From Escherichia coli (GTDB lineage: Bacteria; Pseudomonadota; Gammaproteobacteria; Enterobacterales; Enterobacteriaceae), in NCBI RefSeq assembly GCF_044647545.1, contig NZ_CP172818.1: a stretch of 64,000 nucleotides of DNA; one strand, given 5' to 3'. A program made the translations under genes and the position numbers. Below the pieces are notes generated by a model. The model had not been told where the DNA came from and ran no database searches. It saw nothing but the letters and a program-made list of their open reading frames with translations. Position 1 is the first letter of the stretch. The number at the start of each line of letters is the position of its first letter. Positions 6,994 through 11,077 of this stretch are shown piece after piece.

Positions 6994-7893
6994 TTATGCA
7001 GAGAAAAAGGCGATGAGAATCGGCACTAACAGACTAAGAATAAAACCGTGAACAATCGCCGCCGGGACCATATCCAGCCCGCCAGTACGTTGAAGAACGG
7101 GCAGGGTGAAATCCATCGATGTGGCACCGCATAAGCCCAGTGCAGTAGAGCGGCTGCGGCGAATCAGCCCAGGGATCAACATAATAGCAATCAGCTCACG
7201 GGCCAGATCATTAAAAAACGCCGCGCTCCCGATTACCGGACCAAAAGATTCGGTCAATAAAATACCGGAAAGAGAATACCAGCCGAAACCGGAGGCCATT
7301 GCCAGCGCGGTATTGATGGGAAGATCAAGAATAAAGGCGTTAATTAAACCACCAATTAATGAACTGGCAACCACCACCACGGCGACAATCATTCCCCGGC
7401 GATTAAGGACAATCTGCTTTAAGGTCATGCCATTATTGCGCAACTGAATACCGACGAGGAAAAGTAGCAGAATTAAGGTGTATTCACTGGCTTCGGTCGC
7501 GTGTTGTAAGAAAGCCAGTCCACTCAGGCCAATGGCAAAACCAATCACTACTACGCCGCACAGTTTTAGCGACTCCAGCGCCATCGCAATACGCGATGGG
7601 AGTTTTTCTTGCTGGTGGTAGTTGCGCCACGGCAGACCGCGCTCCAGCCACATCAGGGCGGCAATATTACACAGTAAAATAACGGTAATACTGACAGCAG
7701 AATAATGCAGAATCGCCAACAGGTTACTGGCGAGGTTATCGAGAAACGCCAGACTGATACCCATAAAAAAGAGAATGAGGTAAACCATCCAACTTAATAG
7801 CTGATTAATAACTTTTAATGCAGCTTTTTGGCGAAGCGGAATGAGGTAACCCAAAATCAGGGGAACCAGAATGATTAACAGCCCAGAAAACAT
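6994..7893 (-). CDS. lysO: inner-membrane lysine exporter LysO/YbjE
   Basis: ORF 6994-7941, highly hydrophobic; start placed at MFSGLLIILVPL (299 aa) from recalled length, upstream in-frame Met possible. Confidence 0.8.
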   Translation of the reverse strand: MFSGLLIILVPLILGYLIPLRQKAALKVINQLLSWMVYLILFFMGISLAFLDNLASNLLAILHYSAVSITVILLCNIAALMWLERGLPWRNYHQQEKLPSRIAMALESLKLCGVVVIGFAIGLSGLAFLQHATEASEYTLILLLFLVGIQLRNNGMTLKQIVLNRRGMIVAVVVVASSLIGGLINAFILDLPINTALAMASGFGWYSLSGILLTESFGPVIGSAAFFNDLARELIAIMLIPGLIRRSRSTALGLCGATSMDFTLPVLQRTGGLDMVPAAIVHGFILSLLVPILIAFFSA

Positions 7894-8297
7894 GAAAACC
7901 CAGTCCTTGCAAAGATGAAGTCGAAATGCGCGATGACACACTACTGAAAGCGGAAGGACGAGTAAAGTTGCAATTAAAAGGAAATGTTATGCATCAGGAG
8001 CAGGGGATTTTTATTATGTTGCATTGTTGTGGTCTCTTCCATGTGCATTAAGCCACTGGCGAGGAGCGCAAATCGCCGATCGTTTCCTGTAGGCCGGGGC
8101 AGCCCACATAATGTGGGCTGAGGGCGCGTTTTACAGGGATCAAACTTACCGGTCGCGCGAGAAGTCCAACTTCAGCCCGAGGTTCATGTGGCTTCCTGGC
8201 CTTCGGGAACCGCTTCAGCGTATTGACGCCACCAAGACCCGTGGTTCGGTAACGTCGAAGATAAAACAACCAGGGCAGATAAAGTGCCAATGCTTAA

Positions 8298-8993
8298 TTA
8301 ATTACGTTTTTCCAGTAGAGTCCGGTAAATCAGACCACCGATAATACCGCCGACAATTGGCACCACCCAGAAGAACCACAATTGTTCTAACGCCCAGCCG
8401 CCCTGGAAGATAGCAACCGCGGTGCTGCGCGCCGGGTTAACAGAAGTGTTAGTCACCGGAATACTGATTAAGTGAATCAGGGTTAAGGCCAGACCAATAG
8501 CGATCGGCGCAAAACCTGCCGGAGCGAATTTGTCGGTTGCGCCGTGGATCACCAGCAGGAAACCTGCACTCAATACCAGTTCAACTACCAGCGCGGAAAG
8601 CATGGAATAACCGCCTGGCGAATGCTCGCCATAACCGTTAGAAGCAAAACCGCTGGCTGCCGCGTCAAAACCTGTTTTACCACTGGCAATTAAATACAGC
8701 AGCGCCGCCGCAACAATACCGCCGACAACCTGGGCAATTACGTAGCCAACGACTTCTTTTGCCGGAAAACGTCCGCCAGCCCATAAACCAATAGTGACCG
8801 CCGGGTTAAAATGACCACCAGAAATATGACCAACAGCGAAGGCCATCGTCAGAACGGTCAGACCGAATGCCAGCGCCACGCCGGCAAAACCAATGCCTAA
8901 TTCCGGGAAGCCTGCGGCCAGTACGGCACTACCACAGCCACCAAAAACAAGCCAGAAAGTACCAAAACATTCAGCTGCTAATTTTCTGAACAT
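8298..8993 (-). CDS. aqpZ: aquaporin Z water channel
   Basis: ORF 8298-8999; two NPA motifs ([14 protein letters not shown]); start at MFRKLAAE for 231 aa. Confidence 0.93.
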
Positions 8994-9339
8994 ATCCACC
9001 TCAATTAAAAATTGACCCTGTGAAAAATATGGTCGTTTTATAGGGTCGTCGTAAAAAAGTGACGACGGAAATAATGCGCGGCTATTTTAAAAACGAAGGC
9101 GAGTCATTCACCAGATAAATAAATCCAGTAAATTTGATTTAGGGCAACAGCGGGTTGCCCCATATAGTCATTTGTCTGATTGACAGTGTAGTGCAAGCAA
9201 AAGATTTAATCCTTTAGGCGTAATAAAAAATAATTTATCATGCTAATTATTTGATTTTGTTGTTTTTGCAGGCTTATCAGCAAGAGGGAGTATAACGCGA
9301 TTATTCGCTCATTTTTCAGACATTTGCCATGCTTAAATG

Positions 9340-9352
9340 TGATGTCATCACG
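9340..9352. promoter_or_regulatory. 13-bp palindrome GTGATG-T-CATCAC about 70 bp upstream of ybjD start; candidate operator
   Basis: Perfect 6-bp inverted arms around a central T, read directly from sequence; function not established. Confidence 0.3.
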
Positions 9353-9418
9353 TATTAGCAAGGCCTTTCCCGTTATACTGCCAGCGTAAAGGATAAGTCA
9401 CATATTTCTGGAGGGGAT

Positions 9419-11077
9419 ATGATTCTTGAGCGCGTTGAAATTGTGGGTTTTCGCGGTATCAACCGTTTGTCGTTGATGCTGGAACAAAACAACGTCCTGA
9501 TTGGGGAGAACGCGTGGGGTAAATCCAGCTTGCTGGACGCCTTAACCCTGCTGCTATCGCCAGAATCAGATCTCTACCATTTTGAGCGCGACGATTTCTG
9601 GTTCCCGCCGGGAGATATCAACGGGCGAGAACATCATCTGCATATTATTTTGACCTTCCGCGAATCGCTGCCAGGCCGACATCGGGTTCGCCGCTATCGA
9701 CCGCTGGAAGCGTGCTGGACGCCATGCACCGATGGCTATCACCGTATTTTTTATCGTCTGGAAGGGGAGAGTGCGGAAGACGGCAGCGTGATGACACTCC
9801 GCAGTTTTCTCGATAAAGACGGACATCCGATTGATGTCGAGGATATTAACGATCAGGCACGCCATCTGGTGCGTTTAATGCCGGTGCTGCGCTTGCGTGA
9901 TGCCCGTTTTATGCGCCGTATTCGTAACGGCACGGTGCCAAATGTCCCTAATGTGGAAGTCACCGCGCGCCAGCTCGATTTCCTCGCCCGTGAGTTATCC
10001 TCACATCCGCAAAATCTCTCTGATGGGCAGATTCGTCAGGGACTTTCCGCAATGGTACAGCTGCTTGAGCATTATTTCTCTGAGCAGGGGGCCGGACAGG
10101 CGCGATATCGTTTAATGCGGCGGCGAGCCAGCAATGAGCAACGAAGTTGGCGCTATCTGGATATCATCAACCGGATGATTGACCGACCTGGAGGGCGCTC
10201 GTATCGGGTTATTTTGCTCGGCCTGTTTGCTACTTTGTTGCAGGCAAAAGGCACATTGCGACTGGATAAAGACGCCCGTCCATTGTTGCTGATCGAAGAT
10301 CCAGAAACCCGTTTACACCCCATTATGCTTTCAGTTGCCTGGCATCTGTTGAATCTTCTGCCATTGCAGCGCATTGCCACCACCAACTCTGGCGAGCTGC
10401 TTTCGTTAACGCCGGTAGAGCATGTTTGCCGACTGGTACGTGAGTCCTCGCGCGTTGCCGCCTGGCGTCTGGGGCCGAGTGGTTTGAGTACCGAAGATAG
10501 CCGACGCATATCCTTTCACATTCGTTTTAACCGTCCGTCATCGCTGTTTGCACGCTGCTGGCTGCTGGTGGAAGGGGAAACGGAAACCTGGGTTATCAAT
10601 GAACTGGCGCGTCAGTGCGGACATCATTTTGATGCTGAAGGGATCAAGGTCATTGAGTTTGCCCAGTCCGGGCTAAAGCCACTGGTTAAATTTGCCCGGC
10701 GAATGGGGATTGAATGGCATGTACTGGTCGATGGCGATGAAGCAGGGAAGAAATATGCCGCTACGGTACGCAGCCTGTTGAATAACGATCGGGAAGCCGA
10801 ACGAGAACATTTAACGGCGTTACCGGCGCTGGATATGGAACATTTTATGTATCGCCAGGGATTTTCCGATGTGTTCCACCGCGTGGCGCAAATCCCGGAA
10901 AATGTACCGATGAATCTGCGCAAAATTATCTCGAAAGCGATCCATCGCTCTTCCAAACCCGATCTTGCCATTGAAGTGGCAATGGAGGCCGGACGTCGTG
11001 GTGTGGACTCCGTACCGACGCTGCTGAAAAAAATGTTCTCACGCGTGCTGTGGCTGGCGCGCGGTCGCGCGGATTAA
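9419..11077 (+). CDS. ybjD: OLD-family ATP-dependent endonuclease-like protein (N-terminal ABC/AAA ATPase, C-terminal Toprim-like region)
   Basis: 552-aa ORF; Walker A GENAWGKSS near N-terminus; acidic Toprim-like motifs LLVEGETE and LVDGDEAGK in C-terminal third. Confidence 0.85.
   Translation: MILERVEIVGFRGINRLSLMLEQNNVLIGENAWGKSSLLDALTLLLSPESDLYHFERDDFWFPPGDINGREHHLHIILTFRESLPGRHRVRRYRPLEACWTPCTDGYHRIFYRLEGESAEDGSVMTLRSFLDKDGHPIDVEDINDQARHLVRLMPVLRLRDARFMRRIRNGTVPNVPNVEVTARQLDFLARELSSHPQNLSDGQIRQGLSAMVQLLEHYFSEQGAGQARYRLMRRRASNEQRSWRYLDIINRMIDRPGGRSYRVILLGLFATLLQAKGTLRLDKDARPLLLIEDPETRLHPIMLSVAWHLLNLLPLQRIATTNSGELLSLTPVEHVCRLVRESSRVAAWRLGPSGLSTEDSRRISFHIRFNRPSSLFARCWLLVEGETETWVINELARQCGHHFDAEGIKVIEFAQSGLKPLVKFARRMGIEWHVLVDGDEAGKKYAATVRSLLNNDREAEREHLTALPALDMEHFMYRQGFSDVFHRVAQIPENVPMNLRKIISKAIHRSSKPDLAIEVAMEAGRRGVDSVPTLLKKMFSRVLWLARGRAD

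Follow-up and report, generated by a model that had tools for sequence, protein, structure and literature searches.

The window analysed here is a 64-kb stretch of an E. coli genome in which aqpZ, on the minus strand, and ybjD, on the plus strand, are divergently oriented. The spacer between them (8994-9418) is 425 bp long, non-coding and AT-rich, with a GC content of 37% compared with 51% in the window, and in this respect the preliminary description of the locus is borne out. It corresponds to positions 916048-916472 of K-12, where no annotation lies between the two genes. K-12 and the window differ at three bases of the spacer, none of them inside the palindromes described below, and the Shine-Dalgarno (SD) sequence of aqpZ reads GTGGTGG in K-12, with a SNP at 9001 relative to the window. 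The product of ybjD was lately proposed to be a Class 1 OLD protein, with 'oldB' as the gene name (PMC13261556).

The spacer was matched at ≥95% identity in 5,424 of 5,426 complete E. coli genomes. Its median of one place per genome in these 5,424 led us to reject a repeated element (REP/BIME, ERIC or MITE). Within-species identity to the window, taken over six 65-nt tiles in about 5,400 E. coli genomes, was 88, 76, 46, 95, 27 and 70%, figures that are dominated by a few common SNPs and are therefore uninformative on the palindromes.

Four perfect inverted repeats lie in the spacer (Table 1). All four had been noticed in the preliminary description, at coordinates that were 1-4 nt off: palindrome 1 had been put at 9010-9044, palindrome 3 at about 9141-9159 (off by 1-2 nt) and palindrome 4 at 9340-9352 (off by 1 nt). 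Palindrome 2 had been given 7-bp arms, CGTCGTC, a 7-mer that is absent from the sequence; the repeat reads GTCGTCGTaaaaaagTGACGACG in full and has 6-bp arms in either of two registers. The centre of palindrome 4 is 74 nt 5' of the ybjD ATG.

The number of repeats was compared with that in 2000 dinucleotide-preserving shuffles of the 425-nt spacer, using 6-bp seeds and loops of ≤25 nt. Twelve seeds were observed, against 4.4 ± 2.8 in the shuffles (P = 0.019). For GC-rich seeds, with arms of at least 50% GC, the excess was six against 0.74 ± 1.04 (P = 0.0015), and these six correspond to the four palindromes. The lone 7-bp GC-rich repeat has P ~0.08. Measured against the shuffles, then, GC-rich repeats are denser than chance would give, and single repeats are each only weakly significant.

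Table 1. Positions of features in the aqpZ-ybjD spacer and at its borders
Feature	Position	Strand	Sequence	Remarks	Source
aqpZ start codon	8993-8991	minus	ATG		sequence
aqpZ SD	8996..9002	minus	GAGGTGG		sequence
Palindrome 1 (hairpin B)	9014..9047	minus	GACCCT 9014-9019 / AGGGTC 9042-9047, 22-nt gap	leader +131..+164; RNA GACCCU-22 nt-AGGGUC	sequence
Palindrome 2 (hairpin A)	9045..9067	minus	RNA (C)GUCGUC-loop-GACGAC(G)	leader +111..+133
Palindrome 2, register one			GTCGTC 9045-9050 / GACGAC 9061-9066		sequence
Palindrome 2, register two			CGTCGT 9047-9052 / ACGACG 9062-9067		sequence
Candidate aqpZ promoter P2	9113->9084	minus	TGGTGA 9113->9108, 18 nt, TAAAAT 9089->9084	inferred start near 9077
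Palindrome 3 (SL1)	9142..9160	minus	GGGCAAC 9142-9148 / GTTGCCC 9154-9160, loop AGCGG	leader +18..+36; GGGCAAC-5 nt-GUUGCCC	sequence
TATAGT box	9163-9168	plus	TATAGT	E. coli-specific; serves plus-strand start 9176
aqpZ promoter P1	-10 9191->9185, start 9177	minus	CTACACT	184-nt 5'UTR	Kim 2012
Palindrome 4	9339-9351, centre 9345		GTGATG-T-CATCAC		sequence
Shared -10 region	9366..9386	both	TATACT (plus), reverse TATAAC	TATACT to start 9386; TATAAC to minus-strand start 9366
ybjD promoter	-10 9374-9379, start 9386	plus	TATACT	start 7 nt after box	Cappable-seq
ybjD start codon	9419	plus	ATG		sequence

Transcription starts and promoters

Transcription starts were taken from two independent published data sets. 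The supplement of Kim 2012 (PMC3415461) lists an aqpZ start at U00096.2 915454 on the minus strand, supported by 23 reads only, with a UTR of 184 and an upstream sequence that ends ...GCACTACACTGTCAATCA, as well as a further minus-strand start at 915643 with 10 reads. Plus-strand starts at U00096.2 915663 (score 4.90) and 915453 (score 3.59) are given by Cappable-seq (supplement of Ettwiller 2016, PMC4782308). We were able to place these four starts base-exactly on the window, at 9177 (minus), 9366 (minus), 9386 (plus) and 9176 (plus), respectively. The mapping of starts for both genes that the preliminary description had proposed could thus be answered from published maps, with 9177 for aqpZ and 9386 for ybjD. 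With aqpZ starting at 9177 and carrying a 184-nt 5'UTR, palindromes 1-3 are part of the transcribed aqpZ leader RNA, in agreement with their earlier assignment to the minus-strand upstream or leader region.

A -10 box of the form CTAYRCT with C at -13 is of the sigma-S type, and the sigma-S -10 element reportedly reads CTAYACT with C at -13. The aqpZ promoter P1 has a box of this type about 7 nt 5' of the mapped start, and a CTAYRCT-like box was found in 49 of 57 distinct aqpZ upstream sequences. On the other side of the spacer, an exact TATACT precedes ybjD in 75 of 80 distinct upstream regions, and position -13 is C in 51 of the 80. Both boxes, CTACACT or CTATGCT for aqpZ and (C/T)TATACT for ybjD, thus resemble those of sigma-S-dependent promoters in being conserved and lying 7 nt before the start; unlike them, ybjD of E. 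coli has T rather than C at -13, and it is by its box that this promoter would be of the sigma-S type. We suggest that aqpZ and ybjD use these two sigma-S-type boxes, conserved across Enterobacteriaceae. The literature cites aqpZ as sigma-S dependent (PMC3141248 and works cited there), and a CFT073 probe upstream of aqpZ was transcribed in vitro by sigma-S holoenzyme (PMC3141248).

The starts at 9386 and 9366 flank a single TATACT/TATAAC box, which is the arrangement of a bidirectional promoter. Bidirectional promoters are reported to share one -10 region and to have starts typically 18 bp apart; the two starts here differ in being 20 bp apart, and the one on the minus strand has 10 reads. The plus-strand start at 9176 is served by a TATAGT box that is absent from other genera in the family comparison, and palindrome 3 lies just 5' of this box on the plus strand. 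Regarding earlier reports, Peano 2015 mentions neither aqpZ nor ybjD, a paper on acid stress deals with unrelated questions, and the ExcludonFinder paper lists only ybjD-ybjX.

Two stem-loops in the aqpZ leader

A YbjD scan with one genome per species yielded 80 loci, which belong to some 25 genera of Enterobacteriaceae. In 68 of these aqpZ lies divergently upstream of ybjD, with spacers of 276-817 nt. Most of the aqpZ-ybjD spacer is unalignable across genera, and some elements are conserved. Read in the aqpZ sense, their order is the CTAYRCT box, AAGGAAT..CATCACATTGCCYTAAATCAAATTT, ATTTATTTAACTGGYGAAGGGATG, TTTCTA(A/G)AATA, hairpin A, hairpin B, an A/U-rich tract and TTGAGGTGG-ATG; the TTGAGGTGG-N-TATG at the aqpZ start is nearly invariant among 57 genera-level sequences. 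The footprinting across Enterobacteriaceae that had been proposed for the palindromes therefore has a divided outcome: palindromes 1 and 2 have family-wide stem-loop counterparts, and palindromes 3 and 4 are specific to E. coli or Escherichia.

Hairpin A was studied with a covariance model spanning ATTTATTTAAC to the hairpin, which was used to align 58 loci. The model matched once in each of these loci, without a further match in 588 kb, and once within the 64-kb window. Over the eight pairs of the stem, with statistics that are inflated by the relatedness of the sequences and by fitting the alignment to the structure, 81.5% of cells were paired against 75.1 ± 0.9 in shuffles (reached by 0 of 500) and 18-73% in slid controls, all below the observed value; 20 cells were changed on both sides against 8.3 ± 2.4 (0 of 500), and the covariation score was 0.282 against 0.187, exceeding all 500 shuffles. 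Compensatory changes are seen in E. albertii (GTCGCC/GGCGAC), in locus L059 (TGTTATT/AATAACA) and in Citrobacter (TCATCGT/GCGATGA), and K. pneumoniae has the variant TTTATCGT/ACGATAAA. The loops are 5-11 nt long, the register shifts between genera, and on the aqpZ-sense strand there are 65 G-U-type pairs against 31 A-C-type pairs. With loop length and register varying and G-U pairs in excess, hairpin A fits an RNA stem-loop and not an operator of fixed spacing. The loop CCCUUU is conserved; in Kluyvera this C/U loop persists on an unrelated stem, and a TCGTCAT hairpin occupies the position held elsewhere by hairpin B. These results indicate that hairpin A is a structured RNA element conserved across genera in both sequence and pairing.

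Hairpin B behaves differently. A hairpin is present at its position in nearly all of 63 non-redundant leaders, and its stem sequences are unrelated across genera (CCGGG/CCCGG, CCGTGCGC/GCGCGCGG, GGCACG/CGTGC and CGGTACAGG/CCTGTTACCG are examples). The median folding energy at this position is -11.8 kcal/mol in a 54-nt window with a median z of -1.6 over the 63 leaders, the z-scores of single genomes being modest. The hairpin ends about 20 nt 5' of the aqpZ ATG and is followed by an interrupted U-rich tract, in E. coli by AAUUUUUAAUU and then the SD; the 12 nt 3' of the stem hold a median of six T, and at least six in 58% of 64 leaders. In E. coli the fold is more stable on the plus strand (-15.1 kcal/mol) than in the aqpZ sense (-8.1 kcal/mol), and uncompensated mismatches occur in E. 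whittamii, E. albertii and one E. coli strain. Judged from these sequences, what is conserved in hairpin B is only the presence of a GC-rich stem-loop with a U-rich tract behind it, not its sequence.

A GC-rich stem kept in structure only, with a U-rich tract behind it, is the signature of an intrinsic terminator. It is possible, though unlikely in our view, that hairpin B is a leader terminator (attenuator) at which transcription would partly stop before the ribosome-binding site, and that read-through would depend on which of two structures forms, hairpin A or a helix of its 5' arm and loop with a conserved segment upstream, GAAGGGAUG; the leader would then be an undescribed cis-regulatory RNA. 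A simple terminator scan lists hairpin B of one Enterobacter locus (L043), with eight pairs of which seven are GC, a 6-nt loop and the tail ACGTTTATTA; in K. oxytoca it flags the plus strand at hairpin B instead. Between GAAGGGAUG and the hairpin A segment formed by the 5' arm and loop, 69.2% of cells are able to pair, against 31-58% when slid. The resulting helix, GAAGGGAUG:CAUCCCUUU, would compete with hairpin A, and RNAfold chooses this pairing in Citrobacter and Enterobacter. The conserved C/U loop of hairpin A, found also on the unrelated Kluyvera stem, would fit such a partner, and the leader is matched by no Rfam family. As in intrinsic terminators and in leader attenuators such as those of pyrBI and trp, a GC-rich stem drifts in sequence while its position and the U-rich tract downstream are kept, and a candidate competing helix lies upstream.

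Against an attenuator, the alternative helix has no covariation beyond column composition (69.2% against 68.5 ± 0.7 in shuffles, with 78 of 500 reaching the observed value, and a score of 0.149 against 0.150). Hairpin B of E. coli, a 6-bp stem (four GC) with a 22-nt interior, is not listed by the scan, and the E. coli leader has neither the G-run nor the C-run. The U-tract is interrupted and doubles as the A/U-rich region usual 5' of an SD. The leader also departs from pyrBI and trp in having no leader peptide, a candidate that we rejected by inspection since small leader ORFs vary in frame and length between genera, and in having no known premature 3' end, there being no aqpZ entry among the listed rows of the Adams 2021 3'-end table.

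Further searches of the leader were negative. In Rfam 15 the sole match at E ≤ 1 in window positions 7800-9600 was a Tetrahymena snoRNA model, scoring 24 against a gathering score of 100 bits, and a permissive threshold gave nothing in the aqpZ leaders of Enterobacter, Klebsiella, Citrobacter, Raoultella and Kluyvera. A plain MAFFT alignment of 36 full leaders gave no consensus structure with RNAalifold, as the hairpins differ in register and loop length; a covariance-model alignment was used in its place. For the full leader, the folding z-score is -2.0 in E. coli and -3.3 in Enterobacter. In the E. coli fold UCGCCUU pairs with GAGGUGG of the SD, but this segment is not conserved, and SD pairing was therefore not accepted as a feature common to the leaders. 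The segments ACAAGGAAUGA and GAAGGGAUGU resemble the CsrA SELEX consensus, and both are absent from the E. coli leader. A literature search found no description of the aqpZ leader.

Palindromes 3 and 4

As RNA, palindrome 3 forms a stem-loop, SL1, which folds in E. coli with -13.7 kcal/mol (z = -3.2) and which other genera form weakly or not at all (median z -0.4). The 3' arm reads (G)TTGCCC in the aqpZ sense, corresponding to the left arm GGGCAAC on the plus strand, and falls within the conserved block TTGCCYTAAATCAAA. Perfect pairing with the other arm is confined to E. coli proper: in E. albertii, E. whittamii and the cryptic clades that arm is broken and reads GGGGGAA(C/G), and in other genera AAGGAAT takes its place, so that no more than a weak, bulged stem can form.

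The centre of palindrome 4 falls at -41 of the ybjD start, and the repeat covers +15..+27 as counted from the distal minus-strand start. It was not found outside Escherichia, where other genera keep only a GTGTCA-like sequence that forms a -35 at 18-nt spacing from the ybjD TATACT. In four Escherichia lineages (L003, L004, L007 and E. albertii) an arm is broken, at another base in each and with no compensation. Since both half-sites are not kept in related species, we rejected palindrome 4 as a conserved transcription-factor palindrome. Within E. coli, 30% of about 5,400 genomes carry a SNP in the 39 nt around it; in two variants that we examined the changes fall at 9361 or at the centre base, and the arms are intact. 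A SlyA-like half-site, TTAGCAAG at 9355-9362, was likewise rejected, not being conserved even within Escherichia.

The position of palindrome 4 invites comparison with class II CRP/FNR-type sites, which are centred at -41.5 and read TGTGA-N6-TCACA. Its left half, AAATGTGAT, is a perfect match to the CRP half-site consensus. A CRP operator was nevertheless rejected, as the repeat reads TGTGA-TGTCA-TCAC, with odd symmetry and an N5 spacer against N6, which puts the right half out of register; unlike such sites, it is also not conserved outside Escherichia.

The preliminary description had offered regulator binding sites or leader RNA structure as the meaning of the palindromes. If they were DNA operators for dimeric factors, GTGATG-T-CATCAC would be an activator or repressor site for ybjD, and hairpin A would be an operator lying downstream of the aqpZ start. 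We consider this very unlikely overall, and unlikely for hairpins A and B as protein operators. Palindrome 4 does sit at -41 of a mapped start with a poor -35 and has the left half just described; its arms survive in the two variant E. coli, one of which changes just the centre base, and the 13-mer AATGTGATGTCAT recurs in the aqpZ leaders of six Enterobacter-group loci, borderline above chance. Its loss outside Escherichia, the uncompensated breaks in four lineages and the N5 spacing speak against such a site, as does palindrome 3 being perfect only in E. coli proper. The stems of the leader hairpins vary between genera in sequence, loop length and register, those of hairpin B having no common sequence, and the G-U excess of hairpin A fits RNA; this variation disfavours an operator for a dimeric protein. 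By comparison with sites known to us we identified no regulator site in the spacer, nor did we find one listed for it in the literature, and a GalR prediction that we found concerns another spacer, ybjE-aqpZ. Of the two earlier alternatives, leader RNA structure is thus upheld on the aqpZ side by the 9177 start and the kept stem-loops, and the operator half is unsupported. We found no evidence tying any palindrome to ybjD control; its location at -41 makes a regulator role for palindrome 4 possible.

At the other extreme, all four palindromes might have arisen by accident in an AT-rich spacer, as neutral features of one lineage. None of them is perfect outside E. coli proper, each alone is only weakly significant, and the 65-nt tile identities, dominated as they are by a few SNPs, show no extra constraint on the palindrome segments. 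This explanation seems to us most improbable, as GC-rich repeats exceed the shuffles and tens of genera carry counterparts at the positions of hairpins A and B, with compensatory change. For palindromes 3 and 4 themselves, the comparison points to repeats that are recent, perfected only in E. coli on partly conserved sequence, and with no apparent function.

A proposed role for the aqpZ leader

We think it fairly probable that the stretch is an ordinary divergent promoter region of the sigma-S type, with an aqpZ leader whose two conserved stem-loops act as RNA. The repeats, the conservation and the covariation are observed here and the starts are taken from the literature; from these we infer the functional roles. 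Transcription from 9177 produces the 184-nt leader, so that palindromes 1-3 exist as RNA, and palindromes 1 and 2 are in this reading the E. coli versions of two family-wide stem-loops just 5' of the ribosome-binding site. Hairpins A and B most likely act on the RNA; they may protect the aqpZ message from decay and set the context of its translation, or may bring about partial termination in the leader.

The ompA 5'UTR stabiliser is said to consist of two stem-loops with A/U-rich single strands, the second adjoining the SD. The aqpZ leader also belongs to a membrane-protein mRNA and has two stem-loops with A/U-rich spacers, the proximal one ending about 20 nt before the start codon and leaving the SD uncovered. 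It differs in that its first hairpin, at +17 or +18 from the 9177 start, is not at the 5' end, and stem sequences are unrelated; the likeness would be one of layout.

It is possible, although we rather doubt it, that aqpZ has a second promoter, P2, at the conserved TGGYGA-18-TAnAAT, and that hairpins A and B act like the ompA stabiliser. P2 would give a leader of about 84 nt, starting about 10 nt before hairpin A, closer to an ompA-type stem near the 5' end, and it is compatible with the explanation that we prefer. In 30 genera the invariant columns of this region are the T and G of TGGYGA and T-A-n-A-A-T, where hexamer position 3 varies (A/G/C); they coincide with key -35 and -10 positions, and a conserved A/T-rich tract lies upstream. 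On the other hand, the -35 matches at three of six positions only, the promoter scan does not list P2, and Kim 2012 has no start there. The strong sequence conservation of the leader blocks could reflect elements at the DNA level, such as an internal promoter, rather than RNA.

A bolder possibility, which we regard as quite unlikely, is that the aqpZ leader is an undescribed cis-regulatory RNA switch of Enterobacteriaceae of which E. coli would have a degenerate version. The C/U loop of hairpin A would pair with GAAGGGAUG and, together with hairpin B, may sense a ligand, a protein or an sRNA, and the hairpins may decide whether transcription or translation enters the water-channel gene.

Current concepts are unchanged by the results on the aqpZ leader and the ybjD promoter; the main practical lesson is that the palindromes are not to be interpreted as operators. 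The regulation of aqpZ and the physiology of AqpZ are still debated, and the leader with its family-wide conserved blocks and two stem-loops, as we prefer to read it, offers a mutable target on which post-transcriptional control could be tested. For ybjD, the analysis supplies a mapped start and a near-invariant -10 of the sigma-S type. Going by this promoter sequence, the two together suggest expression in stationary phase or under stress, and that ybjD would behave as a chromosomal core gene rather than as part of a defence island.

Sequence differences around and within the aqpZ leader

The position in the aqpZ Shine-Dalgarno at which the window and K-12 MG1655 differ carries a T>A change in K-12, converting GAGGTGG to GTGGTGG, whereas our comparison of leaders found GAGGTGG retained in the window strain and in all other genera. 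aqpZ may therefore be less well translated in K-12 MG1655.

The spacer 3' of aqpZ, between lysO and aqpZ, could be aligned between the window and K-12 through a hairpin (cagcccacat..atgtgggctg) and roughly 35 nt more. Beyond that point the two sequences are unalignable, with K-12 longer by 90 bp; judging from this alignment, a segment here, 3' of aqpZ, varies between strains.

The order of the leader hairpins is altered in Kluyvera and relatives (L067, L070-L073 and L080 of the 80 loci in our YbjD scan). The stem of their first hairpin, TATGCCTGCC/GGCAGGTATA, is unrelated to that of the other loci, but the C/U-rich loop is unchanged, and a TCGTCAT-CCTTT-GTGACGA hairpin adjoins the Shine-Dalgarno.

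We also found the exact 13-mer AATGTGATGTCAT of palindrome 4, which lies on the ybjD side of the aqpZ-ybjD spacer in E. coli, in six loci of Enterobacter, Lelliottia and Huaxiibacter. There it lies within the aqpZ leader, at the position corresponding to E. coli palindrome 3; a rough estimate puts the chance of this recurrence at 0.05-0.1 after multiple testing.

Features of the aqpZ-ybjD region and its flanks
Feature	Window position	Basis or detail
lysO-aqpZ spacer	7894-8297	window vs K-12 alignment
Hairpin in lysO-aqpZ spacer	8100-8120	
aqpZ Shine-Dalgarno substitution	9001	window vs K-12 comparison
aqpZ start pair	9177 (-)/9176 (+)	published starts
13-mer of palindrome 4	9336-9348	in aqpZ leader of L033, L043, L047, L051, L052, L053
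ybjD start pair	9366 (-)/9386 (+)	published starts
ybjD -10 region	9372-9386	
3' end antisense to ybjD	~10192	K-12 917246 (-)

Paired and antisense transcript ends

Published start sites mapped onto the window form two opposite-strand pairs. Those of the ybjD pair are 20 bp apart and have a TATACT/TATAAC box in common, and those of the aqpZ pair directly abut, base to base; the plus-strand start of the latter could be artefactual, or could mark a genuine promoter (TATAGT) peculiar to E. coli. Inside ybjD, a strong antisense 3' end is listed in the tables of Adams 2021, and the ExcludonFinder paper describes ybjD-ybjX as a convergent excludon.

Conservation of ybjD

Among Enterobacteriaceae, ybjD (oldB) is a core gene kept in synteny, with 80-99% amino-acid identity across the 80 loci. 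One Salmonella enterica subsp. diarizonae locus (L023) has ybjD, with aqpZ not found within 3 kb upstream. Another record, though titled 'Chryseobacterium sp. 18061' (L040), carries a typical Enterobacteriaceae aqpZ-ybjD locus with an 86% identical YbjD; it is probably mislabelled or a contaminant.

The sigma-S-type -10 of ybjD, (C)TATACT, is near-invariant in the window and all 80 loci. Such conservation, together with a -10 of this type, is unusual for a gene billed as phage defence.
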